Below, piece after piece: positions 192 through 62,867 of a stretch of DNA of 64,000 nucleotides. Each line of letters starts with the position of its first letter. Position 1 is the first letter of the stretch. The position numbers and the translations under genes were made by a program. The stretch comes from a virus. The notes under the pieces are model-generated. The model did no database searches, was not told the DNA's origin, and was given only the letters and a program-made list of their open reading frames with translations. The DNA lies in the IMG/VR virus record IMGVR_UViG_3300037511_000475; one strand, 5' to 3'.

Positions 192-551
192 TTAAATACT
201 CAACAACCGATCGCCTACAACTTTCCGCACCCAGGCATGTTCCAAAAACGCCTTCAGCAATAGGCTGTTCCAAGTAACGGATTTTTTATCGGTGGTGCCC
301 ATTAACTCTAGGAACTTGTTGTAGTTACTGCGATCGCTCAATCCAATAAATCCTCTTTCGCTTTTATCCCAATCGGCTTCTAGCTCTTTTAGAAGTGACT
401 GGATGCGCTCATTAGTGATCGCCTCTTGCAGTAACACTGCATAGATTTTAGGTGCCATTCCTTCAACAGGAAAAAACTCGCGGAATAGATCTAAGGTATC
501 CGCTCGGAAAGGAATGTTGTGATAGGTAGGGCGATCGCGTCTCTGGCTCAT
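192..551 (-). CDS. hypothetical protein divergent from the repressor-like gene (cro position)
   Basis: ORF track 192..590; ATG at 551 (MSQRR) preferred because upstream codons overlap the operator motif. Confidence 0.6.
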   Translation of the reverse strand: MSQRRDRPTYHNIPFRADTLDLFREFFPVEGMAPKIYAVLLQEAITNERIQSLLKELEADWDKSERGFIGLSDRSNYNKFLELMGTTDKKSVTWNSLLLKAFLEHAWVRKVVGDRLLSI

Positions 552-656: not shown

Positions 657-1250
657 GTGTCTAGATCCCTGCTGATGGCTAACAGTACAACCCAGATGTC
701 ACGTCAACGAATCCCGTATACAGACGCCCAGATCCGGGGCATGAAAATCGTCGCTCAAATCCTGAAACAAGCCAGAACCCGTGAAGGCTGGTCTTTTCGT
801 GAATGCGCTGAGATTATTGGCGATCGCGCCGGGTATACATTTAACCATTCCAGGGTTCAACGCTTTGAGCGGGCAGGCACAGTCGTTGATAAGCGAACAC
901 AAGTAACGGAGGCCATAAATCCGCTGTACCTCAAAACAATACAGCCACTCACCCCTTACCCTTTAACGACATTAAAGGAGCTGTACGACGGCGAACTAAT
1001 AGATCTGTTTGATGAGGAGTCACCCGTGCTAGGAGCACTGATAGAACAAAAAGAAGATGAATTAGGTTCTCAGAAATTCCGGGCTGAATGCAAACGCCTT
1101 GGTTTGACCGAAGAAGAAATTATCGAAGCAAAGAAAGGCAACCTTTTATCAGGCAAGGTAATGATCGCTCTATCTTCCCTATTAAAGGTTCCCACGGATG
1201 AAGTGCAGCTAGCTGCACTTGCGCAACTAAACAACAACCTCGACAGTTAA
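657..1250 (+). CDS. XRE-family HTH regulator, candidate phage repressor, probably two HTH domains
   Basis: N-terminal LKQARTREGWSFRECAEIIG...HSRVQRFE HTH; second HTH-like segment at C-terminus; no S24 peptidase domain; two operators upstream. Confidence 0.75.
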   Translation: MSRSLLMANSTTQMSRQRIPYTDAQIRGMKIVAQILKQARTREGWSFRECAEIIGDRAGYTFNHSRVQRFERAGTVVDKRTQVTEAINPLYLKTIQPLTPYPLTTLKELYDGELIDLFDEESPVLGALIEQKEDELGSQKFRAECKRLGLTEEEIIEAKKGNLLSGKVMIALSSLLKVPTDEVQLAALAQLNNNLDS

Positions 1251-3000: not shown

Positions 3001-3019
3001 TGTATTGTAATTCAATACA
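3001..3019. promoter_or_regulatory. palindromic operator, motif A (perfect)
   Basis: TGTATTG TAATT CAATACA, 4 nt before terL ATG, between divergent genes. Confidence 0.85.
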
Positions 3020-5757: not shown

Positions 5758-6154
5758 GTTTGACAAATCTCCATTTTTCAAGTTGTTCTTTATCGCGTAA
5801 ATCACATGATTTCCGCCATTCAATCAAGGCAACCAAGGCCAAATCAAAACTCATTCCCTGCACCTGGCTGTCCTTTTCACCTCTTGAAAGCACCATCCAA
5901 GGCAAGTCAGCCGAAAAACGGTAGATGCAACCGATATACTCATCCGGTTTGCCATTGCCACACAAATAGATATCGTGATGGCTCATAAACGGCGCTTCTT
6001 CGGCATCTGCATCGCAAAAGTGGTTTACATCGAAATCACCATGCCGATAATGCTTTGCATCCAGCAGGGTGCGAGCTTTCCATGCGGGCACAGAAGGGGC
6101 GATCGCCCTCTCCGCTGGTGCATCTCTGAATAGATCAAGCTGCGCTATCATCAC
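5738..6154 (-). CDS. hypothetical protein
   Basis: 138-aa ORF coupled to the resolvase gene. Confidence 0.6.
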   Translation of the reverse strand: MMIAQLDLFRDAPAERAIAPSVPAWKARTLLDAKHYRHGDFDVNHFCDADAEEAPFMSHHDIYLCGNGKPDEYIGCIYRFSADLPWMVLSRGEKDSQVQGMSFDLALVALIEWRKSCDLRDKEQLEKWRFVKHEHGSK

Positions 6155-6704
6155 TCAACTCCAGCGATCGCTCTGTCAGCAACTTCGCGGCGTGCATCAT
6201 CAGCACAGCTTCAGCCCGGTTATGATTCCGGGCATACTTGCCATTGCGTGACTTGTAGAAAATCTGATCTCTGATAGATGGGTAGAGTTTGATAGCCAGG
6301 GCGATCGCCTGCTCTTCGTCACTCCCCACAATCCCCAGCACCGATCGCCATTGCGCTGGCACTGCATTAATCACCCCTACGCCATGAACCAGCAAAAGCG
6401 TCTTCACCGCTTCATGGCTACGAATGAGCCCTTCTGCGCTCGCCATCTTGCTGGTATCGCGGCTATCAATGTGAACCTGCTCAACCAGGGCGATCGCCCT
6501 CTGCTTTCCAATCCTTTGACTGATAATTTTGTTAAGAGCTACCGAGTCATGCTGATAGAACGAATAGCGCCCTACCTGCCGTTTTTCGGGCAATGTAGGC
6601 ACCCCATGTAGATGCACCGTCCCATCCGGCATCAAAAACGAAAGTACCCCGGAACTACTGCCAGGGTCGAAACCTACGTAAATTGTGGAATTAGCTGATT
6701 TCAT
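6135..6704 (-). CDS. RuvC-like Holliday junction resolvase
   Basis: YVGFDPGSSSG, ALVEQV, NHNRAEAVLM acidic catalytic pattern. Confidence 0.85.
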   Translation of the reverse strand: MKSANSTIYVGFDPGSSSGVLSFLMPDGTVHLHGVPTLPEKRQVGRYSFYQHDSVALNKIISQRIGKQRAIALVEQVHIDSRDTSKMASAEGLIRSHEAVKTLLLVHGVGVINAVPAQWRSVLGIVGSDEEQAIALAIKLYPSIRDQIFYKSRNGKYARNHNRAEAVLMMHAAKLLTERSLELSDDSAA

Positions 6705-8798: not shown

Positions 8799-8817
8799 TG
8801 GCTTGATATTCAATACA
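8799..8817. promoter_or_regulatory. operator motif A, CAAGCC half-site variant
   Basis: TGGCTTG ATATT CAATACA. Confidence 0.65.
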
Positions 8818-20418: not shown

Positions 20419-20437
20419 TGTATTGAAATACAGGACA
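20419..20437. promoter_or_regulatory. operator motif A
   Basis: TGTATTG AAATA CAGGACA, 5 nt before ATG. Confidence 0.65.
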
Positions 20438-28920: not shown

Positions 28921-31900
28921 ATGCCGACCATTTTAGATACTTTGCTGTTAGAGGTTGACCTCGACCCTTCACGTTACGCCGCAAAGATTGGTCAACTTAG
29001 AACTGATGCCATGGCATCGGCTAAAGAGGTTGAGAGCGTATTTAAGAGCGTCAACGCAACACTATCGGCGAAGGTAGACGATCGCGCACTGACTGCCCTA
29101 AACAAGCACTTAGACCTAAAACAGGCGCACTTTGCCCAGGTACGGCGTGATTTTCAACAAAACCCGTTGAAGCCAAGGGTGGATTTCAAGGATTTAGACA
29201 ACCTTGAACGGCGATTAAACCGTCTCAAAAGCGGTTCCTTCAACGTAAATATCTCTGCATCCGGTGGCACTTCGTCCGGTTCTCATCAGCAAATGGCGGA
29301 TGCGATCGGGCGCGCGGTTGCTAAACATTCCCGCCCTTCTACTGTTTCGCGTATCGTGGGTGGAGTTGCAAATGCTGCAACAGCACCTATTCGTGCTGCC
29401 CTGGCTATCCCCTCGCAGGTCATCAGCCAATCTGCACAAGGGATTGCCTTTGGTGTAGCCAATGAGGTTTCTAAGAATCTTGGGAAAGGTTTATCTACTG
29501 CACTTGAATCAGCCGTTTCACGTTCATTCGGTAGCACTGAGCTAATTGGTGAAAAGCTGGGTGGTGCAGTTGGTGCAGCGGTTGTTGACGCTTTTGGCGA
29601 TCGCATTAAAAGCATCCCAGATTTACTTGAAAAAGCGATCGATCGCATCCAATCCCCAAAGAAACGTGCTGAACTCAAAAAAATGCTGGCAACCATCCAG
29701 GAAGTTCCTGGGGTTGTGCGTAAGCAGGCAGTTGACACCTTGGGGGGTGAAGCCGCTGTAGCTCAGGAAGGGATGGCTGTACGGCAATCCCAGCGCAAGC
29801 GCAAGCAAGCCAAAAAGCCAGCAACGCAAGAGGGTGCGGCAACTGAATGGCGCGATGCCCTATGGAATCGTGATTTAGTAAACGCTGAAGCAGGCGATCG
29901 CCGTACCGCCAACGACAAACAACGCGCCATCCTCCAACGGCAGGGACAAGAGGCACAAAAGGCCTTTGCCGACTTAAACAAACAACTTGAAGAGGCGAAA
30001 GCAACAGGCGACAAAGAGTTAGAGGCTGAAACCAATAAGGCGATCGCCCAGGTATCAGCGATCGCCATGGGTACAGTTGAGGCGATCGAGCAACTTGAAA
30101 AGCTAGACACGGAGATAGCTAAGGAAAGTCAAAAAGCTGATGAACGCGTGAAACAGGCATACGCCCGCTATCAAAGCGTTATGCCACGGCAACGCCCAAA
30201 ATCTTATGAAGATTTATTCAGCCAAGCGACGAAAGGTGCTGTCAGTCAAGAAAAGATGCCAGTGCTGCGAGTAGCTGATACCAAACTTAAAAAGATTGGT
30301 GCAAAGGCGCAATATGATGTTGCCCGCAACGCAATCGAGGTTACGCGTGAAACCTATGATGCGATCGTTTCTGGTACTCTGACCAATGCACAACGTGAAA
30401 CCCTTCTAGAAGAGTTGAATCATGCTGTAGATTTTGACTTTGGCTCTTTCAAAGGAATGCAGGCGGCAAAATCAAGGCGCGTAGTGGGGAAACCTGTCAC
30501 ACCTACGGCTGAAGAGTTTGCAAAGCTTGCGCCTGAATTGGGTTTATACTCACCCGATCGCCGTGCCCTGGAATTAAACGCCAAAGTGAAGGCGATGCGC
30601 GATCTGGATGCTGTAAGCCAATCTTCGCGGCAAGCCAAAAACCTTGAGTTGGTGCCAGAAGTTGCTGTAAATAAGCTGAAAATAGAGCGGCAACGTAAAC
30701 TATTTGATGCTCAACTAGGTTGGCTGGATGAACAGGGAGCAGCTAAAGGAGTTGATGTTTCCGGCTTTGTTGGCAAGTATCGCGAATTGTTTGATGATCT
30801 TGACTCAAAGATCACGGGGCTGGTTAGTTCTGTCACTGAAGCCGGATTAGATGCGGATCCGGCAGAAGTTGAAGCCGCTATCAAAAAGATGGAGGCTTAT
30901 TGGAGCACCCTTGAGACTCTAAACACCAAACTTCAAGAGCGGATTAAGCTCACGGCTCAAGGCGTTGGGCCTAAGCCTGAGTCAGCATCGCTCGCTCGCA
31001 CTACACAGGCGATCGCTCAACAATCTGGCGAGGGCAAAACGGTCAGAGAGCGGGTTAATGATGTGGCCTACCAAGCAGGGGCGATCGCAGGCAATGCAGC
31101 GGGTGCAATGCGGTCTGTTATTGGCTCCCCTCAAGTGCAGGCGATCGGGAAATTTACTGTTGGAGTTTACAAAGCTTCAGAGGCGATCGAAAGTCTCGTT
31201 TTAGACCTGGTTCCTTTTGGACGGATTGCCAAGGGCACTATTAAAAATGTTGCCGCTCCAATGGCTATGTACGGGGCTGCAACCCATCTGTTACCCGGTG
31301 GTGCTGCATTGGGTGAAGCCATCACCCACACAGCGCAGATGGGGCTTACTCCTATCGGAAACATGGTTTCCGGCGGAATGATGGATGCTGCATCGGCAAC
31401 TATCAGTCACTTGCCCGGTGCATTTGGCATTCAGCAAGCTGTTTCCGGTGCTGTTAGTGCTGGAATTGAATCACTTACCCAGGCGGGTACAGCGGCGATC
31501 GCCTCTGTCGGTACTGCCCTCATCGGCGGAAAAGCGATGCAGAATGCTGCTGCGATGCCATTGAAGGCGATCGCCCCTGGTTCTGCGTTGCAACTTCAAT
31601 CTGCACAACAAAAAGCTTTGCCTGGTAGTAACGCAGCAGCAGCCCTGACGTTAACATCCCCTACAACACTGAATGAGGCAAAAACAAAAGCTGTAGAAGC
31701 CGCATATAAAGCCGGTCAGATGGCAGGAGAGGCGATCGCCAATGTCCAAGAACTAATCGATGCTGGTAACGCCCTGGTTGGCAATGTCTCAAGCGCTTAT
31801 GCCAACCTGAAAGATGCTATCAAAACCGCTGAAAAGGCGATGAAGACAGGCGATCAAGGGGCGATCGCCGAAACACAACGTAACGTAAAAGCGTACGAAG

Positions 31901-34900
31901 AAGCCTTCCAGGAAACAAAAGAACACGTCTTGGGGCGAATTAATGACCTACTAGAGTTCGCCCGTGATGCAGGCGAAGCACAGTTTGGAGCTAAGGGTTT
32001 AAGTGCTCTGGGTGGCATTAAAGGGCGAATCACCCAACAATTCAATCGCGCAGAACAGCAAACCCGCAAGTTCAAAAACAAGGCAGGCATTGCTGATGAT
32101 GCGATCGATGTACCGTCGGTAGCAGCACAACCGAAAGAAGTTAGGCCTGTTCCGGTAAACCTCCCAGAAGCACGCCCAATTGTTGATCTATCAACCGAGT
32201 ATGAAGCATTAGGTGAAGACCTTTGGGCACAGAAGTTAAGCCTGGAAAGCTTTGGTGATGCCCTCGACAAGGCTCGACAAGGCTTAGAAGATTTCCTGGC
32301 TACCACCTACGACGTGGAAGCACAGGGTAGCGTCATGGGTACCGCAAAGGCTGCGCTGCAAACACCCAAGGCCAGAGAGCAGATTAAGGATTTAGCAGTC
32401 AATGCGGGCGGCATGGCGGCATCTGCTGCAATGGGGCATCAAGGAAATCTGGCAGGCATCGCAGGCGACATTAGCGGCGCACTCATCACCCGGCAGTTAA
32501 TCGAATTAGGAATTGCACTCAAAAAAGCCAAGCAAAACTTAGATCAAAGTCTTGCCAGTGGCGATATGAGCGGGCTTGACAAGTTCAAACTGCTCATGAC
32601 CTCTCTCAACAATGAACTACAAAGTAAAGCATTTGAATTAAACCAAAAGGATGCAATCTTTGGCGATATTACAGGCTTTGCCGTCGGTAATGCCGCTGCC
32701 CAACTCCCCAATGTTTTACAGGCGGCAGGGGTGCCCGGTGCAGGTGCTGTTGGTAAATTGCCAGTGGGGGCGATCGCCGCTTCACTCTCTGTTGATTCCC
32801 TCCGCAAACTGCGTGATCAAATAGCGGATGCTGTATCCCAGGGTGCATCAGAGGGATTAGATGAGTCATTGGGTGAAGATCTTGCAGCCCAAAGCCTTGA
32901 TCTCAGCAAGAGAGGGCTTAAGCCTCGCAGGGGCATGAATGATGCTGAGAAGGCATACTACCAGGATCTGATCCGGGTAATTGATGATGCGATCGCTAAG
33001 GCTGATCAGTTCGATAAAGCCTACGCAGCAGCCGATCCACAGGTACAACAACGACTGGACGAAAGCCGCAAAAAGCTACAGGCGCAAATAGATCCCGACC
33101 CACAGGGCATCATTCAGCAAGTTCAATCAACAATCGAAGAATATGAAAAAGTAATTGCTGAGCTAGAAGCAGGCTACAACGAACGAATTAATAAATCTCA
33201 GGAAAAAGTAGCTGAAGATCTAGAGTATCGGAAAGCCTATGCTGAATTGATGGGCAAAGATCCAGACTTGGGGGCGATCGAAGCACCTCCAATGCCCAAA
33301 GAAAATAAGTTCTTTGAAGCGCTCAAGGGTGACATCGGGGAAATTATTAAAGGCACCAAAAGCCTTGGCAGTGCGTTAACTGGGTTGATTCCTGCTGCTG
33401 CTGGATTGGGGGCGATCGTTGCTTTCGGGCCTCAGCTCTGGGATCTAGGAAAAAGTTCTATTGAAGCTGCAATGGATATGCAGCAACTAGAGCGAACAGT
33501 AATGTTTGCCTCTGGCTCATTCCAGCAAGGGCAAAAGAATTTGGCAATGTTGCGCGACGAAGCCAACCGTTTAGGGGTAGACCTTAAAAACTCAATGGAG
33601 GGCTTTGCGGGGTTCGCCAATGCTACGAGAGGAACATCCTTAGAAGGCGCAGCAACTGAGCAGATCAACAAAGCCATCCAGGAAGGTGCAGCAATTAGCC
33701 AATTAACCGGGCAACAAACCGATCGCCTCTACAAGGTATTCAGAGACATCGCAGGTAAAGGACAGGTTTACTCTGAAGAATTGGTAGGCCAATTGGCTGA
33801 AGTTGGTGGCGTGTTCTCCGGTGGCTTACAGATTGCCGCCAGATCCTACGGCATCAACTCACAGCAACTCCGCAAACGAATGAGTAGAGGTGAAATTAAA
33901 TCTGAAGACTTCCTGCCTCGTTTCGCACAACAATTGAGCGCTGAAACCGCTACCAGTGTTGAAAGTTCTGCAAACTCTGCACAGGCATCTGTAAACCGCC
34001 TCAATAATGCGATCTTTGAGTTGCAAGCCGCGATCGGTAAACAGCTTCTGCCAGTGCGGAATATGGGCCTGGATATGCTCACAAAGGCATTGCAGGCAAC
34101 AATGGTTGTCTTGCCTCCTTTTATTCAGTTGCTAAGTTCAGCGGCGATCGCAGCTATAACACGCTATGCCGCTGCACTGGTAACAGCAGGCGGTGCCAAG
34201 ATGGGCTTTGTCACAATCACAAAGCTAGCCGGAGTCGCGATAAAATCCTTTATTGGCTTGATGAAGTCATCAGCACTTAGCACAGCAGGTTTAACAGTTG
34301 GTTTGTTTGGGGCGATCGAGTTATTCAAGCTATTTAAATCAGTACAGGAAGATGCGGGTGGAGCCGCAAAAGATTTTGCAGAACAATCGCGTAAGAGCTT
34401 AGAAGAATACTTACGATTGACTGGACAGGCGATCGACAAAACTAAAGAATTAGCTGATGCACAGCGTAATAATGCACCTTCTGCATCTGAAGGGGGCATT
34501 CTGGGGACACTTGCCCAAAGTATCTTCGGTGATGCAGGTACGCAGTTTTTACGTAACGCCGAAACTGGGATTCAACGCCGACTAGGGCTAAGCACACTGG
34601 CTGATAAAAAGGCTAGTGACGTACTTGTAAACAGCCGTGAAGGGCGATTCAACACGGATCAGCTATTGGGTCAAGCCCAACAGATGTTTGGGCGTGGCGG
34701 GAATGCCCAGGGGCAATTGCGACAATTAATGGACATTGATGCACGTATCCAGCAGGAACGCGATCGCCGCGCAACAATTGACCCTGGCAATGAATCTGAT
34801 GTGCGGGCATCGCAAGCAAGAGAGCAAGAATTGCTGGCAGCCAGAGAAGAAGCGGTTAAGGCGGTCGCTCTGTTGCAGAAGTCCTTTGCTGAAAGGGTTG

Positions 34901-37900
34901 AATCTATCAAGGCTGCACAAGATCGCATCCAGCAAGCATTGGACGAAGGCAACCTTACCCCTGAAGATACGGCAGCGTTACGCACCGAATATGATCAGTT
35001 GGGGCGTCAACTTGAAGATGTTAAGACCATGCAGGATCGTTTTAATAAAGCGATGTCGCAGGGTCTGCAAATAAACCAACAACTTCAACGTTCTTTTGAC
35101 AAGATTGCCGACAGTATCAGTGATGCTAACCAGGCATTAAGCATCCAAGAGGCAAAATCTAGACAAACCCTTGCAAATCTACAAACCACAACGAATCTGA
35201 CTCCAGGGCAGTTGCAGGGGATGCAGAATACCAACGCCATCCAAGGATCCGTAAACCGGATAGCAGTCAACCAACAGGCGAGATCCGGTCTTCAATCGCT
35301 TTACGATTCACCCGCAATCCAGGAAGCATTATCAGCGGCGGGGCTAAGCTCTGATAGTGGTGTTGCCGAGATTCGCCGCAGGATTGACAGCATCGGTGAA
35401 AGCCTAACTACTGAAACACGCGATCGCCTCACCATGGCAGCAGATGCCAGAGAGCGGATGCAACAGCTTGACTTAGAAACGGCAGGCATGGCTGCTGATA
35501 TTGCCGAGACGCAAGCGCAAGCGGCACAAGCCATGAGGGACTTGAACAAGGAGATCAAGGATTACCTGAAAGAGGTACAACGTGCAGCCGAAGACCTTGC
35601 ACAAACGACTAAGAGAACCAATTTTCAGGTTGCCATACAAGATGCCAAGTCTAGAATAAGTACGGCATTGGGCGACTACAGCGATAATTTCTTCAGCGGA
35701 ATTATTGACGCGCTTGATCAAGCATTGCAGGCAATCTTTAAAATTCCTCAAAACTGGCTTGATTTAACTGAGCAAATTACACAAATCAATCGCACATTCC
35801 AAGATGGGCAACAAAACCTATCTAATCTACAAGGGCAGGCAATCCCGCAAGGCACAATAACAACACCGGGCGATGCCAATAGCGGCTCTGGCGGTGGCTT
35901 CTTCTCCCCGCTAAGAGGGCGCAGCGTACAGGAATTAGTTAACTATCAAGAATCGGAAGATCAGGGCTGGCGTGCCACAAGACATCGCCGAAGCGGAGTT
36001 GGGGTTCATGGCGGAATTGATTTTGGCAGGAATATTGGTGGGGTACCTGGCGCCGAAGTTGTTGCCATGGAATCAGGAAACGCAACTATCCGCCAAATTG
36101 CTACCGCTGAAGGTACGGGCGAAGGATCGATGCAGATACGAATTGAGTTTGTTGATGAACAAGGCCGTCCGATCACCCTTGAGTATAATCACCTAGCCGA
36201 GTCTGCCGTAAGACAGGCTTTAGGGAGAACTAGCGGTACTGTGCCAGTTAACGCAGGTCAGGTAATCGGAAGAATTGGGCAGGACGACACAATTTCATCA
36301 GGCGCACACCTTGACACCAAGATCAGAATCAATGGTGAGTTTGTGGATCCACAGCAGTACATACAAGCGCGTGGCGGATCGGGTGGGATGGTTACAACCT
36401 TGTCGGGTCGCCAGGTTCGTGTAAATGCCGCTGGTGGCGCACAACTCACACCACAACCGACGCGATCGCCTGCGTCAGCGCCAACAGGACAGCAATACCG
36501 TCCACGCGCAGGTACAGCCAGAACAGCCGAAAGTGTACAGCGTGACCCAGCAGGTGCAGCAGCAATTGTTGCATCCGCACAACGCCTGCAACTCGATCCC
36601 GTGCAACTTGCGGCGTTAATGAGTTGGGAAAGTGCTGGCACCTTAAACCCTAACGTTATGGGTGGTGATGGCGGTCAGTATAGAGGATTGATTCAATTCA
36701 GCCCTAGCAACCAACGGCAATACGGCATTAACGGCAATATGTCGATCGCTGAACAGATGCCAGCGGTTGAGCGCTATCTACTGGATCGTGGCTTTGTTCC
36801 AGGACAAATGGACATTCGCGGAGCTTACTCCGCTGTACTTGCGGGAAATGCCAATCAACGTTATTGGAATAGAACAGATAGCAACGGAACATCAGTAAAC
36901 AATGCCGCTGGTAGATTCCGGAGTGGGGAGCATTACGATCGTGCTGCACGTTTCCTGCAAAACAGCAACGTTGATCCTAGAAACCCAGGGGCGATCGCCT
37001 CTACGTCTTCCAGTACGGGCACGGGTGTCCCTGGGGCTCAGCTTCTCCCTGGTGTCCCACTAGACACAACCTCACTTAATGCAAGTAGCGAAGGTTTGAG
37101 GGCTAATGCACAGGCTGCAAGTGCCAACGCTTACGCTAATTTCAACTCCAATAACCGGGCGGCTGTAGCTGAAGCCGTTGGAATATTGGATCGTGTCAGC
37201 ACACAGATCCGGCAAAACAGCCGAAGTCAAGCCGATGCAGTAAGGCAGGCACAGCAGGCCGTTGACGATGCATTTGCTGAAGGTCGTGCCGACACCAGCG
37301 AGAACCGCTATCAAGAAGCATTACGCCGCGTCACCCAGGAAGAATCGCAACGGGCAACCGAGCTAAGCCGAAACATTGAAGACTCAACGCGATCGCTCGA
37401 GCAGTTGCGCTTAAATCGTAGCTTGATGCAGGAAGAGCTGAATAAGGCTCAACAACTGGTTGCTGACAACCCAGCGCTTCGCGAGCAGATGGCTCCTGCT
37501 ATTCAGAAGTTTAATGAGACATTGTCGGAGATTGACGGGTTAATCGCAGAGACAGAAACCAATATTGGCAAGTTACAGGAAGCCGCAGATCAAGCACCAA
37601 TTGCTTCCATGGCTAAGCGCAAGAAACTGTACAACGATCGCCAACGTGAGATCGCCAACGAACGTTTCGCCCAAAGTTCTCGACTAATCCAAGGTGACAT
37701 GGGGATTACCCAGGCGGCGATCGAAGGGATGCAGATTAGAGGTGAAGAGGTTCGCCCTGCACAGCGAGGCTTGCAAGCTCAGCAGATTATGTTTGATTAC
37801 CGCAGTCAAATTAGAGACATTGACAACATGGAAGCGTCAATGGAGATAACAGCGGAAACGGCGGCGAAGCTGAGAGAGCAGTTAGGGCAGTTGCGCGATG

Positions 37901-38970
37901 TTCAATTGTCTAATTTGGCTGCACAAGCAGAAGTCGATCGCCGTGCCATGGAAGAAGAAGCCTATCAGGAGCGGCGTAGGGTCACAGACTCATCAATGAC
38001 ACTAGGACAGGCGATAATCGACCAGCGCAAAGCCAGAGGACAGGATACAAGGCAGGGCGAGCGAGAAATGGCGATCGCTTCTCAGCAACTTGATTTTCAA
38101 TCAGGGTTGAGAGAGATTCAACAACTGCAAGACACAATGCAGATTTCTGCGACTACTGCGGCACAACTCAGAGACAACCTATCTCAAATCAATTCCGTAA
38201 AACTGGATACAATCAACAGCCAGTTCGACGTGTTCAGTTCACAAGTATTGCCAGAGCTTCAGGGAGCAACACAAAATCTATTTTCTGGGCTGATTAACGG
38301 TTCAATGAACCTGGAAAGCATCTTAGATAATCTGCTCTCTAGCCTTGCAAACATTGCCGCTCAACTGCTCACCCAAGAATTGTTCGGGAATTTTATGGGA
38401 GGAGGTAATTCAGGCTTTGGCGGTGGAATTCTGGGAGCCGTTGCCGGAGGTGGTAAAAACTTTGGTGCCCTGGCAGGTGGTGGCGGTGGAAAGTCTTCAG
38501 GTTGGATGGATATTGCGGGGCTATTCCTTAATGCAGCCGTTGGCGGGTTTGCTGATGGGGGTGTTGTTGGATCTGCCAACCATAGCAACTATAAGCAGGG
38601 TTACGGCGAGATATCTAAAGCACTTCAAAGAGAAGGCCCAAATGGGGTATTGGCAGCTTTAACGCCCGGAGAACTGGTACTTAATAACCGTGAAACACGC
38701 AGGTTCTTTGATCTTGGCTTAGATAAGGTATTGAATTTCAAAGAGGGCGGCGTTGTTGGTGGAGCAGGTAAGTCACCTGTAACAGTGCAGGCAGCGCCAC
38801 AAATGGGAGGCGGCATTAACGTATCAATTCCCATCAATAATGAGTTCAAAGGACAGGGGCAAGGACAAGACAACCCAATCAACTCACAGCGTCTAGAGTC
38901 CGTAGTTCGCAACTTGGTTATTAGCGAACTGGAAAACCAAACTCGATACAGGGGGATTGTACGAAGATAG
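28921..38970 (+). CDS. tape measure protein with zincin-like, M23 peptidase and lytic transglycosylase domains
   Basis: 3349 aa, Ala/Gln-rich helical; tape domain near 33480; HGGIDFG/EYNHL/GAHLD; LAALMSWES...GLIQF; C-terminal FADGGVV/GELVL. Confidence 0.93.
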   Translation: MPTILDTLLLEVDLDPSRYAAKIGQLRTDAMASAKEVESVFKSVNATLSAKVDDRALTALNKHLDLKQAHFAQVRRDFQQNPLKPRVDFKDLDNLERRLNRLKSGSFNVNISASGGTSSGSHQQMADAIGRAVAKHSRPSTVSRIVGGVANAATAPIRAALAIPSQVISQSAQGIAFGVANEVSKNLGKGLSTALESAVSRSFGSTELIGEKLGGAVGAAVVDAFGDRIKSIPDLLEKAIDRIQSPKKRAELKKMLATIQEVPGVVRKQAVDTLGGEAAVAQEGMAVRQSQRKRKQAKKPATQEGAATEWRDALWNRDLVNAEAGDRRTANDKQRAILQRQGQEAQKAFADLNKQLEEAKATGDKELEAETNKAIAQVSAIAMGTVEAIEQLEKLDTEIAKESQKADERVKQAYARYQSVMPRQRPKSYEDLFSQATKGAVSQEKMPVLRVADTKLKKIGAKAQYDVARNAIEVTRETYDAIVSGTLTNAQRETLLEELNHAVDFDFGSFKGMQAAKSRRVVGKPVTPTAEEFAKLAPELGLYSPDRRALELNAKVKAMRDLDAVSQSSRQAKNLELVPEVAVNKLKIERQRKLFDAQLGWLDEQGAAKGVDVSGFVGKYRELFDDLDSKITGLVSSVTEAGLDADPAEVEAAIKKMEAYWSTLETLNTKLQERIKLTAQGVGPKPESASLARTTQAIAQQSGEGKTVRERVNDVAYQAGAIAGNAAGAMRSVIGSPQVQAIGKFTVGVYKASEAIESLVLDLVPFGRIAKGTIKNVAAPMAMYGAATHLLPGGAALGEAITHTAQMGLTPIGNMVSGGMMDAASATISHLPGAFGIQQAVSGAVSAGIESLTQAGTAAIASVGTALIGGKAMQNAAAMPLKAIAPGSALQLQSAQQKALPGSNAAAALTLTSPTTLNEAKTKAVEAAYKAGQMAGEAIANVQELIDAGNALVGNVSSAYANLKDAIKTAEKAMKTGDQGAIAETQRNVKAYEEAFQETKEHVLGRINDLLEFARDAGEAQFGAKGLSALGGIKGRITQQFNRAEQQTRKFKNKAGIADDAIDVPSVAAQPKEVRPVPVNLPEARPIVDLSTEYEALGEDLWAQKLSLESFGDALDKARQGLEDFLATTYDVEAQGSVMGTAKAALQTPKAREQIKDLAVNAGGMAASAAMGHQGNLAGIAGDISGALITRQLIELGIALKKAKQNLDQSLASGDMSGLDKFKLLMTSLNNELQSKAFELNQKDAIFGDITGFAVGNAAAQLPNVLQAAGVPGAGAVGKLPVGAIAASLSVDSLRKLRDQIADAVSQGASEGLDESLGEDLAAQSLDLSKRGLKPRRGMNDAEKAYYQDLIRVIDDAIAKADQFDKAYAAADPQVQQRLDESRKKLQAQIDPDPQGIIQQVQSTIEEYEKVIAELEAGYNERINKSQEKVAEDLEYRKAYAELMGKDPDLGAIEAPPMPKENKFFEALKGDIGEIIKGTKSLGSALTGLIPAAAGLGAIVAFGPQLWDLGKSSIEAAMDMQQLERTVMFASGSFQQGQKNLAMLRDEANRLGVDLKNSMEGFAGFANATRGTSLEGAATEQINKAIQEGAAISQLTGQQTDRLYKVFRDIAGKGQVYSEELVGQLAEVGGVFSGGLQIAARSYGINSQQLRKRMSRGEIKSEDFLPRFAQQLSAETATSVESSANSAQASVNRLNNAIFELQAAIGKQLLPVRNMGLDMLTKALQATMVVLPPFIQLLSSAAIAAITRYAAALVTAGGAKMGFVTITKLAGVAIKSFIGLMKSSALSTAGLTVGLFGAIELFKLFKSVQEDAGGAAKDFAEQSRKSLEEYLRLTGQAIDKTKELADAQRNNAPSASEGGILGTLAQSIFGDAGTQFLRNAETGIQRRLGLSTLADKKASDVLVNSREGRFNTDQLLGQAQQMFGRGGNAQGQLRQLMDIDARIQQERDRRATIDPGNESDVRASQAREQELLAAREEAVKAVALLQKSFAERVESIKAAQDRIQQALDEGNLTPEDTAALRTEYDQLGRQLEDVKTMQDRFNKAMSQGLQINQQLQRSFDKIADSISDANQALSIQEAKSRQTLANLQTTTNLTPGQLQGMQNTNAIQGSVNRIAVNQQARSGLQSLYDSPAIQEALSAAGLSSDSGVAEIRRRIDSIGESLTTETRDRLTMAADARERMQQLDLETAGMAADIAETQAQAAQAMRDLNKEIKDYLKEVQRAAEDLAQTTKRTNFQVAIQDAKSRISTALGDYSDNFFSGIIDALDQALQAIFKIPQNWLDLTEQITQINRTFQDGQQNLSNLQGQAIPQGTITTPGDANSGSGGGFFSPLRGRSVQELVNYQESEDQGWRATRHRRSGVGVHGGIDFGRNIGGVPGAEVVAMESGNATIRQIATAEGTGEGSMQIRIEFVDEQGRPITLEYNHLAESAVRQALGRTSGTVPVNAGQVIGRIGQDDTISSGAHLDTKIRINGEFVDPQQYIQARGGSGGMVTTLSGRQVRVNAAGGAQLTPQPTRSPASAPTGQQYRPRAGTARTAESVQRDPAGAAAIVASAQRLQLDPVQLAALMSWESAGTLNPNVMGGDGGQYRGLIQFSPSNQRQYGINGNMSIAEQMPAVERYLLDRGFVPGQMDIRGAYSAVLAGNANQRYWNRTDSNGTSVNNAAGRFRSGEHYDRAARFLQNSNVDPRNPGAIASTSSSTGTGVPGAQLLPGVPLDTTSLNASSEGLRANAQAASANAYANFNSNNRAAVAEAVGILDRVSTQIRQNSRSQADAVRQAQQAVDDAFAEGRADTSENRYQEALRRVTQEESQRATELSRNIEDSTRSLEQLRLNRSLMQEELNKAQQLVADNPALREQMAPAIQKFNETLSEIDGLIAETETNIGKLQEAADQAPIASMAKRKKLYNDRQREIANERFAQSSRLIQGDMGITQAAIEGMQIRGEEVRPAQRGLQAQQIMFDYRSQIRDIDNMEASMEITAETAAKLREQLGQLRDVQLSNLAAQAEVDRRAMEEEAYQERRRVTDSSMTLGQAIIDQRKARGQDTRQGEREMAIASQQLDFQSGLREIQQLQDTMQISATTAAQLRDNLSQINSVKLDTINSQFDVFSSQVLPELQGATQNLFSGLINGSMNLESILDNLLSSLANIAAQLLTQELFGNFMGGGNSGFGGGILGAVAGGGKNFGALAGGGGGKSSGWMDIAGLFLNAAVGGFADGGVVGSANHSNYKQGYGEISKALQREGPNGVLAALTPGELVLNNRETRRFFDLGLDKVLNFKEGGVVGGAGKSPVTVQAAPQMGGGINVSIPINNEFKGQGQGQDNPINSQRLESVVRNLVISELENQTRYRGIVRR

Positions 38971-39003: not shown

Positions 39004-39022
39004 TGTATTGAAATAAGATACA
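39004..39022. promoter_or_regulatory. operator motif A inside an extended hairpin between convergent genes
   Basis: CTCTGATGTATTG AAATA AGATACATCAGAG. Confidence 0.6.
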
Positions 39023-44505: not shown

Positions 44506-44524
44506 TGTATTGAATTGCAAGCCA
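44506..44524. promoter_or_regulatory. operator motif A, CAAGCC half-site variant
   Basis: TGTATTG AATTG CAAGCCA, 1 nt before gpI ATG. Confidence 0.7.
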
Positions 44525-54553: not shown

Positions 54554-54790
54554 ATGGATGTATTGATGACCGATAAGCGATCGCAGCCCAGGGTCTACGG
54601 GGAGGTGAAGAAGAAATATCAAATCATGCTGACTCCATCTGCATCTGATCAGCTTGATTCCTTGGCTGAGTTGCTGGGTGCTACACGCTCTGATGTGGCT
54701 GAGCGTGTAATAAGGGCGTTGTACAACACTGGTGATGAGGCGCTGATTCGTGCGTTCCTGGCTCGTGGGGAGGGCGATCGCAATGTATAA
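54554..54790 (+). CDS. ribbon-helix-helix regulator
   Basis: KKKYQIMLTPSASDQLDSLAELLGATRSDVAERVIR. Confidence 0.8.
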   Translation: MDVLMTDKRSQPRVYGEVKKKYQIMLTPSASDQLDSLAELLGATRSDVAERVIRALYNTGDEALIRAFLARGEGDRNV

Positions 54791-55712: not shown

Positions 55713-55725
55713 AGTTCGCCTGTAC

Positions 55726-55744
55726 TGTATCCTATATCAATACA
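55726..55744. promoter_or_regulatory. operator motif A variant
   Basis: TGTATCC TATAT CAATACA. Confidence 0.65.
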
Positions 55745-55759
55745 CTGGGAGAACCCAAA

Positions 55760-56239
55760 ATGTGTGATGAATCCGAAGAGTTTTACGCGTTGTTGCATCG
55801 AGTGAACTTCAGCAAAAACTGGTTAGCCCTTGATTTATGGATGGCTTCCGAGCTTTGCGACCAGTCCCTAGAAAACGACCACGCTGAAGCCCTTGCAACC
55901 TGGATGTTGGACAGCAAGCAGAGTGACCACGAAGCCATGAAGCAAGCGCTAGGGGTTAATGATTACGGCAAGTTGTTGGTAGAGCGGGCGATCGCTCGGA
56001 TTAATGGAACTACAGAGGCGATCGTTTCTCAGGCTTTTGGGATGGCATCTCAAGCTGTAGAGGATAACGCAACCGTAGACGTTGAGCTGGAAATGTCTAC
56101 CTGTGCCCAGATTGCTTTGTTTATGCATCGGCAATGGCAAGAGGCAGGCACCTCTATGCCTTTCACTGAATGGCTCAACGAGATTATGTGGAGCCAACCG
56201 GGCACGGTTCTAATTACTGAAGCGGAGGGCGATCGCTAA
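55760..56239 (+). CDS. hypothetical protein
   Basis: 159-aa ORF. Confidence 0.7.
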   Translation: MCDESEEFYALLHRVNFSKNWLALDLWMASELCDQSLENDHAEALATWMLDSKQSDHEAMKQALGVNDYGKLLVERAIARINGTTEAIVSQAFGMASQAVEDNATVDVELEMSTCAQIALFMHRQWQEAGTSMPFTEWLNEIMWSQPGTVLITEAEGDR

Positions 56240-56556
56240 TGGCATGGAAATACTGGAAAGGTGAGCATGGGCACTGGTTCATCGAAGACCCCGACTCTGG
56301 CGTCACACTGATGAGCTGCGGCCTATTTGCAGAGCGTGAATGGGTAGCATTGCAAGTGTGCTGCTATCTGAACGGGCAAGGGATGCAGGGGACTTGGTGG
56401 CTAGAACTGCGGGTTGGTGATTACTTCCTTTGCTGCCCTAATCATGGATGTGTCATTGCACATTCACTAACTGATGACATGACAGAGTACCTATCAACAA
56501 ACAAACTCATGCCTCAGATGTTTCGAGGCTTTGAAGATAGAAGCGATCGCCCTTAA
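56239..56556 (+). CDS. hypothetical Trp/Cys-rich protein
   Basis: 105-aa ORF, TAATG overlap. Confidence 0.6.
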   Translation: MAWKYWKGEHGHWFIEDPDSGVTLMSCGLFAEREWVALQVCCYLNGQGMQGTWWLELRVGDYFLCCPNHGCVIAHSLTDDMTEYLSTNKLMPQMFRGFEDRSDRP

Positions 56557-56571
56557 CCACCCACAAACACC

Positions 56572-56946
56572 ATGACTTACACACAAATCAAACCACGGCA
56601 GCCGATCGCCCTCACCCAGAAAAACCTGAAAGCCTACGAATGGATACGCACTTACATGGAGTTGAGTGGAGGGCGATCGCCCTCCGTCCGAGAAATTATG
56701 AAGGGACTCAAACTCAAAAGCCCTGCACCCGTTCAGGCTCATCTACGACGTTTAAGAGAGGCTGGTTACATAACCTGGCTAGACGGTCAGACACGCGCTC
56801 TAAAGCTCACCAATGAGCCAGGGTATGTCATCCCACCCGCTAACGCAGCCATCGTTGCCGCCAAACTGCAAGCACTGGCAAAGCGATCGCCCATCAGAAT
56901 CAAGTCTGAGCTACTGGCGATCGCACAGGAGCTACAAGCCTCTTAA
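56572..56946 (+). CDS. LexA DNA-binding-domain protein without the peptidase domain
   Basis: LTQKNLKAYEWI...SPSVREIMKGLKLKSPAPVQAHLRRLREAGYITWLDGQTRAL; only about 40 aa follow. Confidence 0.88.
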   Translation: MTYTQIKPRQPIALTQKNLKAYEWIRTYMELSGGRSPSVREIMKGLKLKSPAPVQAHLRRLREAGYITWLDGQTRALKLTNEPGYVIPPANAAIVAAKLQALAKRSPIRIKSELLAIAQELQAS

Positions 56947-56986
56947 CCAAGAATTACCTAATTTTCACATTTCCCTATTGTCAAAC

Positions 56987-57005
56987 TGTATTGAAATACA
57001 ATACA
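56987..57005. promoter_or_regulatory. operator motif A (perfect)
   Basis: TGTATTG AAATA CAATACA. Confidence 0.85.
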
Positions 57006-57006
57006 G

Positions 57007-57189
57007 TTGAATTATGGAACACGAAGGAGCGCAAACATGCTGGCAGTCGTAATCGAAAACAAGAACTTTGAAGCTGAAACGATTCTGTTCCCTTACTCTG
57101 CCGATGGTCAGACCATCAAGCAGACGATCGCCGTTCTGTACCCTGGCTACAAGTGGATCGAGACCATCGAGGAACGGACTGCCCTGTAA
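57007..57189 (+). CDS. small hypothetical protein
   Basis: 60-aa ORF; real start may be ATG at 57037. Confidence 0.5.
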   Translation: MNYGTRRSANMLAVVIENKNFEAETILFPYSADGQTIKQTIAVLYPGYKWIETIEERTAL

Positions 57190-62070: not shown

Positions 62071-62556
62071 ATGCAGATTTCAGTTGATGATATGCGCGGT
62101 GCGGGCAAGGCTGGGTATGTGGCAAAGATTGGCGATCGCTTTGAGAAGCATTTCTTGACTGCTGCTGAATATTCCGGTCATGGTGCGAGCCGCAAGACCG
62201 TGACTTATGAGATCTCCGAAGATGGCGTGTATGAAGTGTGTGACGCCAACTATGGAGCCCGCAAGCGCAAAATCAGCTTCCTGGTTGTTAAAAATGGGCA
62301 GTGCGTTTTTGAGTCGGAAAAGCTTGATGACGCTTACCGCCATTTCGATGTGTTGACGGGGAGGCTGGAAGCATGGGCGACCGATGGTGATGTATTGCCT
62401 GAGTTGGAAGGATCCCCTAAGCAGATTGCATGGGCTGTAGATATTCGCTCTAAGGCGATCGCCGGTGGATTGCCTACAGCTAAAGCCGCAACCGTGACAT
62501 CCGCTAAGGCCTGGATTGACAACCGTTCTAAGCTTGCCAAGTATGGGGTTCGATAA
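62071..62556 (+). CDS. hypothetical protein with LPELEGSxKQIAWA..IR..WIDNR domain
   Basis: ATG at 62071; C-terminal motif recalled from phage/ICE proteins. Confidence 0.7.
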   Translation: MQISVDDMRGAGKAGYVAKIGDRFEKHFLTAAEYSGHGASRKTVTYEISEDGVYEVCDANYGARKRKISFLVVKNGQCVFESEKLDDAYRHFDVLTGRLEAWATDGDVLPELEGSPKQIAWAVDIRSKAIAGGLPTAKAATVTSAKAWIDNRSKLAKYGVR

Positions 62557-62867
62557 TGGCAACGATTGACACAGCAAGATTAGATGCAGCGCTGCAAGCC
62601 AAGTTAATCAAGCGATCGCTCAAGCCAGAGCAAAAGTTATTTCTTCATCCTTCGGTGGTTACGGTGTGTGAGCTGCTTGAGGCGATCGCCTCATCTGGCA
62701 AGGATGGCTTAAGCGTTGAACAATTGAGCGATCGAGTTGGCATTCATCCCAATACGGTGGCACAGTACACCCGATGGCTGATTCAAAATAATTTGATACG
62801 ACTGGATTTTGAAATAACAGAAACAAGCGATCGCCGCAAACGAAGAAATGTTTATATTGCCGCATAG
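62556..62867 (+). CDS. winged-helix DNA-binding protein
   Basis: LLEAIA...GLSVEQLSDRVGIHPNTVAQYTRWLIQNNLI. Confidence 0.75.
   Translation: MATIDTARLDAALQAKLIKRSLKPEQKLFLHPSVVTVCELLEAIASSGKDGLSVEQLSDRVGIHPNTVAQYTRWLIQNNLIRLDFEITETSDRRKRRNVYIAA

Follow-up and report, generated by a model that had tools for sequence, protein, structure and literature searches.

A truncated LexA-type protein of a cyanophage and its putative role as a regulator at phage palindromes

The LexA-type gene and its phage surroundings

A gene for a truncated LexA-type protein of 124 aa (P0001) lies in the window, by which we mean the whole 64,000-nucleotide stretch of DNA that was analysed. It is the last gene of a tightly packed three-gene unit, 55760-56946(+), and this unit lies in a long rightward array of small early/replication genes running to the SSB gene. 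The genes and protein segments concerned, and some landmarks of the phage, are given below.

55760..56556 (+), two co-oriented genes upstream of the P0001 gene, 159 and 105 aa (open reading frame list)
56572..56946 (+), gene of the truncated LexA-type protein P0001, 124 aa (open reading frame list and translation)
56608..56808 (+), LexA-type winged helix-turn-helix, residues 13-79 (PF01726, AlphaFold2, Foldseek, identity with Dolichospermum LexA)
56713..56763 (+), LKSPAPVQ and the remainder of recognition helix 3, residues 48-64, ending at A64 (alignments)
56809..56835 (+), linker, residues 80-88, at the position of the LexA hinge and cleavage site (pLDDT, end of HMM alignment)
56836..56940 (+), C-terminal two-helix tail, residues 89-123 (AlphaFold2 model)
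3024, large terminase
49256, small terminase
8831 (-), D5-type primase-helicase

The window belongs to a siphovirus-like cyanophage and is phage throughout. Besides the terminases and the primase-helicase, it encodes Mu-like portal, ClpP-type protease, tail tube, minor tail and gpJ-like proteins, as well as a dCTP deaminase-like protein, a Bro-N protein and the SSB. At the tape-measure position there is a single ORF of 3349 aa (28921-38970), a length quite out of the ordinary for a siphovirus-like tail module. We counted 220 copies of the HIP1 motif (GCGATCGC), where about 1 is expected; this is one copy per 290 bp or so, and the richness points to a cyanobacterial host. Such a HIP1 density is unusual for a phage genome. 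Many of the copies sit at gene ends, so that several ORFs end in ...GDRP or ...SDRP before the stop codon. Two sequencing runs contain the stretch, both of soil-metagenome DNA and one of them probably its source, while no RNA run is listed as containing it. The ORF at 56572-56946(+) was also called on two assembled contigs (79,361 and 22,279 bp). The 159- and 105-aa genes upstream of it match no Pfam family, and the 105-aa product is without relatives.

Performing profile searches, we find that P0001 matches Pfam LexA_DNA_bind (PF01726) over residues 13-76 with an E value of 2e-16 and 60 bits (cut-off 23.7). The NCBIfam lexA model TIGR00498 aligned at model positions 3-70 of 203 only; its score, 55.4 bits, is half of the curated equivalog cut-off of 110.95, which places the whole protein outside the LexA repressor equivalog. 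The AlphaFold2 model, made from an input alignment of 88 relatives, has a mean pLDDT of 85 with blocks above 94 across the DNA-binding domain, and it exhibits a confident three-helix winged-helix domain at residues 16-79. Foldseek ranked E. coli LexA chains first (3JSO, 3JSP, 1JHH and 1LEA; rmsd 0.8-1.4 Å over 67-70 residues). The closest of them, the LexA-operator complex 3JSO, superimposes at 0.8 Å over 67 residues, i.e., the DNA-binding fold is that of canonical LexA, and the PDB sequence search agrees. In the alignment of 88 LexA-type sequences, P0001 retains the conserved residues P37, R40, S50, P51, L58, L61, G65, G72 and R75. P0001 thus carries a LexA-type DNA-binding domain and nothing else that is recognisable.

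The preliminary description had stated that the Ala-Gly cleavage site and the S24 domain are replaced by a short helical tail, and our searches bear this out. In a tblastn search of the window with the whole Dolichospermum LexA, only residues 4-70 matched, at the P0001 gene, where the N-terminal domain is 47% identical over 68 residues. Residues 71-201 gave no match in any frame of the window (best chance hit, E 0.35), and there is no Pfam S24 match in P0001. Since the S24 region is unmatched in every frame, the cleavage/dimerisation domain is truly absent and has not been frame-shifted away. The scissile Ala-Gly bond is absent as well: MAFFT sets I-V-A-A-K of P0001 against I-A-A-G-G of the host protein, and the stretch is predicted to be helical. 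Unlike canonical LexA, P0001 therefore has neither the hinge Ala-Gly nor the S24 Ser-Lys protease/dimerisation domain, and because both are missing it cannot be inactivated via RecA.

The linker is a low-confidence part of the model, where pLDDT drops to about 57, with residues 85-87 under 50; the LexA HMM alignment stops at residue 81. Beyond it, AlphaFold2 predicts two helices (residues 89-105 and 108-123) with pLDDT of about 75-80. The tail gave no Pfam match and no feature-based Atlas hit. Similar short helical tails are found on other short proteins with a LexA DNA-binding domain, e.g., P0005, P0057 and P0116. From the model, we presume that the tail may serve as a dimerisation module; a homodimer prediction with two copies and the 88-row alignment scored 0.07 against a mark of 0.42, which speaks neither for nor against pairing. 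We rejected a ribbon-helix-helix (RHH) assignment of the tail. A NikA-like (RHH) structural neighbour was too weak and the model contains no strand, while RHH-family matches to the tail of the relative P0116 were faint (E about 0.1) and insufficient for an RHH call.

Palindromes and host-type LexA boxes in the phage genome

The gap directly after the P0001 gene contains ACTGTATTGAAATACAATACAGT, whose core recurs across the phage genome. The pattern TGTATTG-N5-CAATACA with at most 3 mismatches has 29 matches in the window (2.8 expected), TGTAT-N4-ATACA has 17 and TGTAT-N9-ATACA has 15 (1.3 expected for each). Shuffled sequences never reach the observed counts of the three patterns. With an iterated weight matrix we located about 24 separate loci, where shuffled sequence gave 0-8 hits; the copies are nearly always intergenic. 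Many sites have a third, tandem half-site, so both the N4 and the N9 layouts are satisfied. The sites that flank the P0001 operon, together with the exact LexA-box cores described further below, are the following.

55713..55726 (no strand), host-type LexA-box core AGTTCGCCTGTACT, in the gap before the P0001 operon (exact match)
55726..55744 (no strand), palindrome TGTAT-N9-ATACA, 15 nt ahead of the leading gene of the P0001 operon
56987..57005 (no strand), best palindrome copy TGTATTG-N5-CAATACA, 41 bp past the P0001 stop codon (perfect match, top weight-matrix score of 30)
6643-6656, second exact LexA-box core AGTACCCCGGAACT, 48 nt inside the coding start of the gene at 6135-6704(-)

The copy at 56987-57005 extends to a 23-bp palindrome (56985-57007) and overlaps a sigma-70-like promoter of the next gene, TTGTCA-18-TACAGT at 56978-57007, before an ATG at 57037. 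Copies of the palindrome also precede structural operons. In its inner 14 bp, TGTAT-N4-ATACA, the palindrome is laid out 5-N4-5 like a LexA box. This layout is found in the cyanobacterial box AGTAC-N4-GTACT (AGTACWNWTGTACT) and in CGAAC-N4-GTTCG of B. subtilis, and the E. coli box has TGTAT-N4-ATACA within CTG(TA)5CAG (PMC3091678). Compared with the cyanobacterial half-site, that of the phage has a different base at the first and the last position.

We also checked whether the palindrome is kept in other phages. Two related phage contigs from other samples encode homologues, 73% and 62% identical, of the protein encoded at 657-1250, and both intergenic palindrome copies are kept there at the same places while the surrounding intergenic region has diverged. 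From this conservation, we read the motif as being under selection. The conserved copies lie at 554-572 and 622-640 of the window, between the divergent genes 192-551(-) and 657-1250(+), and at 185-203 and 252-270 of the first related contig (L203) and 567-585 and 631-649 of the second (L204). The right arm of the second copy reads TGATAC rather than CAATAC in each of the three phages. Further relatives, sought via the 657-1250 protein, were found neither in IMG/VR nor in JGI metagenomes. When IMG/VR was scanned for exact copies of the 19-bp palindrome, the hits were for the most part isolated and attributable to chance, and no LexA-type gene was found at any of these loci. One unrelated viral contig, L107 (IMG/VR contig 3300032267_000660), has a dense repeat of its own (TGTAATGTAACACAATACA, about a dozen copies in 14 kb) and contains neither HIP1 nor a LexA-type gene.

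The distance from a site to the start codon ranges from 1 to about 100 nt. The copies at 3001-3019, 20419-20437, 44506-44524 and 554-572 end 1-5 nt before a start codon, which would mean either leaderless mRNAs or an overlap with the ribosome-binding region. Two more copies, at 8799-8817 and 39004-39022, lie between convergent genes, after the primase-helicase gene and after the 3349-aa ORF, respectively; these positions are terminator-like and a promoter role does not fit them. With such varied distances and two sites between convergent genes, one geometry, whether of an activator or of a repressor, does not account for every site. We likewise rejected the palindrome as a promoter element of fixed position, its distances to start codons and to -35-like hexamers being variable.

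Host-type LexA boxes were searched with the core AGTWC-N4-GWACT, a cyanobacterial consensus (PMC3091678). The exact core has 2 matches in the window against 0.04 expected, and two were reached in none of 100 shuffles. The strict Mazón pattern RGTACNNNDGTWCB has no hit in the window, and the looser AGTACWNWTGTACT with at most 3 mismatches is not enriched (31 matches, 34 expected). The box at 55713-55726 shares its last base with the palindrome copy at 55726-55744. Being upstream of the operon, this single site suggests that host LexA or P0001 may set the level of P0001. As to the gene that holds the second core, 6135-6704(-), the N-terminus of its product (VGFDPG) is RuvC-like by eye, and in the promoter region of the gene we note TTGACC-18-TACAAT, whose spacer contains a palindrome copy.

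Relatives of the protein and known systems

Performing an exhaustive HMMER search of 1.84 billion representatives, we obtained 671 matching clusters at E <=1e-3. Setting aside the query itself and two long proteins with two LexA domains each, the top hits are mostly of 70-190 aa and consist of a LexA domain alone or with a short variable tail. Full-length cyanobacterial-type LexAs rank slightly below these short proteins. No relative from this search is more than 52% identical to P0001. No orthologue was found in any other assembly searched, no near-identical DNA was present in the phage collection, and in a word-index protein search P0001 and its 105-aa upstream neighbour each matched only themselves. 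The best PHROG is 3502 (E 3.6e-13), and the class also includes PHROG 24920 and 362; PHROG 3502 and 24920 are without known function, and the tail of P0001 is without a detectable family. Mycobacteriophage proteins annotated as "LexA-like DNA binding domain protein" (e.g., Cosmo gp13) match residues 32-80 at 45% identity. The stand-alone LexA_DNA_bind proteins of phages and bacteria are of the same class of architecture as P0001, and by these comparisons P0001 is an orphan member of this large class.

A maximum-likelihood tree of 27 domains (76 columns) was poorly resolved, with one starred branch. In this weak tree, P0001 falls outside the clade of full-length cyanobacterial LexAs and within an unresolved set of short proteins that have the DNA-binding domain only. 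Among the short relatives, P0057 has the recognition helix QAHL, as in P0001. The loci of other short LexA-domain proteins (L071/L200, L081, L199 and L205) have no shared palindrome and no informative inverted repeat near the gene.

Some relatives showed arrangements of their own. The best HMMER hits, P0002 (598 aa) and P0003 (560 aa), carry two tandem cyanobacterial-type LexA DNA-binding domains each (SPAPVQSRLERL); one pair is embedded in a TPR-like protein and the other follows an unrelated N-terminal domain. We know of no description of this tandem architecture. On a HIP1-rich contig (L199:693-2853; 17 sites in 7 kb), the gene of P0005, a short LexA-domain protein of 150 aa, is followed directly by that of a PAS-EAL protein, and a ParB-methyltransferase is encoded close by. 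An EAL gene is also found in the present phage (11897-12622).

The presence of many intergenic copies of one short operator, including copies inside co-directional arrays, resembles the stoperators of mycobacteriophage L5. The L5 stoperators are asymmetric and oriented and are read by gp71, an unrelated HTH repressor, whereas the present sites are palindromic.

A truncated phage LexA is already known. The gp6 protein of GIL01, a tectivirus of Bacillus thuringiensis, is a truncated LexA homologue, 44% identical to the host LexA domain (Fornelos et al. 2018, PMC6182141). Its binding site is the phage palindrome GaCACAnnTGTGaC, unlike the host box, and it switches on the late promoter; the production of gp6 is itself under a promoter that host LexA represses (PMC6182141). 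P0001 adds another case, from a different phage group and a different host phylum, and carries an additional helical tail. Both are phage-encoded LexA winged helices without the cleavage/dimerisation domain, each about 44-47% identical to the LexA of its own host group, and the control of gp6 by host LexA has its likeness in the host-type box before the P0001 operon. They differ in size, gp6 being of 66 aa without a tail and P0001 of 124 aa with an extra 36-aa two-helix tail, and in number of sites, one for gp6 in GIL01 against about 24 candidates in the present phage. Aligned pairwise, gp6 (66 aa, from AJ536073) and P0001 are 30% identical over 66 aa (E 1e-4). This similarity is consistent with shared LexA ancestry rather than with one phage family. 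Because their mutual identity is only 30% and each is closer to the LexA of a different host group, the two proteins are probably of separate origins. The placement of gp6 in the tree is unreliable, as it sits on a long branch.

Putative function at phage sites

The annotation of P0001 as a truncated LexA-type protein is well supported, and its function as a regulator is putative. Tentatively, we favour P0001 as a RecA-insensitive phage regulator that acts on the phage palindromes, a reading that we put forward with some reserve. P0001 would be a phage transcription factor made of a LexA-family winged helix and a short two-helix tail. It would pair via the tail, or else on the DNA as the tail-less gp6 must, and would bind the about 24 intergenic TGTAT/ATACA sites. 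Binding would switch phage transcription units on or off, in a manner analogous to the action of gp6 on the GIL01 late promoter, with P0001 acting either as an activator or as a repressor. At the 55713 box, host LexA or P0001 itself may act. The LexA-type domain, the phage context, the enriched and conserved palindromes, the copies flanking the operon and the gp6 precedent all argue for the regulator, and together they make it a plausible candidate role that we would still not call probable. The 19-bp unit counts against it, being conserved over its full length and longer than a LexA box. There is also a bolder version, which we consider doubtful. It takes P0001 as a cyanobacterial-type LexA domain retuned from AGTAC to TGTAT, a RecA-proof master regulator of a genome-wide regulon of about 24 sites whose operon is still gated by a host-type box, i.e., an independently evolved two-LexA circuit like that of GIL01.

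Other proteins of the phage might read the palindrome in place of P0001. DNA-binding candidates in the phage are the 197-aa protein at 657-1250, a 103-aa winged-helix protein at 62556-62867, an RHH-like protein at 54554-54790 and the Bro-N protein. P0001 might accordingly be a local regulator of few sites, for example its own operon or the promoter at 56978-57007, with the palindrome read by a different protein of the phage; the most plausible reader would then be the HTH protein at 657-1250. The gene for the latter stands in a classic divergent-promoter arrangement with the two palindrome copies conserved in both related phages. Moreover, it has the relatives at 62-73% identity, while P0001 and its upstream neighbour have none, as might be expected of an accessory gene. 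However, the XRE-type HTH match of the 657-1250 protein is below the Pfam threshold (E 0.0012; 19.6 bits against 27), and the strongest copy of the palindrome adjoins the P0001 gene. The related contigs are only 1.1-1.8 kb long, so the absence of a LexA-type gene there is uninformative. We consider this division of labour unlikely.

The preliminary description had proposed that P0001 could be an uninducible mimic of the SOS repressor, from a recognition region nearly identical to that of cyanobacterial LexA. In such a case, uncleavable P0001 would bind host LexA boxes and hold the host regulon (SOS or other genes) repressed. The resemblance is slightly closer than to the LKSPAPIQ given there, which is present in LexA of Prochlorococcus and Xenococcaceae. 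The octapeptide LKSPAPVQ (residues 48-55, nt 56713-56736) is exact in genuine full-length LexAs of Dolichospermum sp. FACHB-1091, D. planctonicum NIES-80 and Anabaena sp. CRKS33, so that the recognition helix begins with the same S-P-A-P-V-Q in P0001 and in these proteins. In a pattern scan of one genome per prokaryote species, the best 80 loci were all cyanobacterial; the pattern, built from P0001 and its nearest hits, itself favours cyanobacteria.

We aligned the domain with 77 full-length cyanobacterial LexAs, mostly of Prochlorococcus; the positions named here are invariant or nearly so across all genera of the set. P0001 keeps the cyanobacterial S50, P51, A52, P53 and Q55. The DNA-contacting residues of E. 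coli LexA are Ser39, Asn41, Ala42, Glu44 and Glu45 (PMC3091678), and in the HMMER alignment they fall on S50, A52, P53, Q55 and A56 of P0001. Four of these five contact positions (S, A, P and Q) thus carry the cyanobacterial residue, while the fifth is Ala in P0001 against Ser in 76 of the 77 host-type proteins (S56A). Invariant Arg57 and Lys64 (each 77/77) are changed as well, to His and Ala. In the wing, K73Q replaces a nearly invariant Lys (70/77), and A74T and T76A replace invariant residues (77/77 both). Six positions that are invariant or nearly invariant in cyanobacterial LexA are thus changed, and among the 43 positions at least 90% conserved there P0001 retains 25. The substitutions in helix 3 and the wing would fit a shifted DNA specificity.

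One part of the mimic proposal stands: with no Ala-Gly bond and no S24 domain, P0001 is resistant to RecA-stimulated cleavage. Binding to host boxes and damping of the SOS response do not find support, given the six residue changes and the position of P0001 outside the full-length cyanobacterial clade in the weak tree. The two exact host-type boxes, one of them upstream of the operon and possibly autoregulatory, would suit a mimic. The precedent speaks differently, gp6 having evolved a different specificity (PMC6182141). Furthermore, some cyanobacterial LexAs are not SOS regulators, and Synechocystis LexA is neither cleavable nor an SOS regulator (PMC3091678, PMC7567884). On balance, host mimicry appears improbable. 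The suggestion that P0001 competes with prophage induction has no footing as yet, since no integrase was seen within the window and a temperate lifestyle is thus not established. Action on phage sites, which had been named as the alternative, fits better than host mimicry, given what is known of gp6 (PMC6182141) and given that palindromes of 5-N4-5 layout flank the operon; mimicry is the less likely of the two.

A role other than transcription factor (replication-origin binding, DNA packaging, partition, or a decaying remnant) is very improbable: the gene does lie in the replication region near the SSB gene and there are faint PHROG matches to replication-initiator families (E 0.19-0.33), but these are far weaker than those to PHROG 3502 and PF01726, and the ORF is intact, confidently folded and keeps the conserved LexA-type residues.

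Should P0001 be a mimic instead of a phage regulator, the phage would possess a means of locking the host LexA regulon without regard to RecA, and to our knowledge no such case has been described for cyanophages. If, as we favour, P0001 reads the palindromes, the circuit would be simple, consisting of a single small factor and a single motif present at about 24 promoter-proximal sites. [quoted passage not shown] Such a case would inform how specificity shifts after gene capture, and it may offer an orthogonal repressor/operator pair for cyanobacterial engineering.
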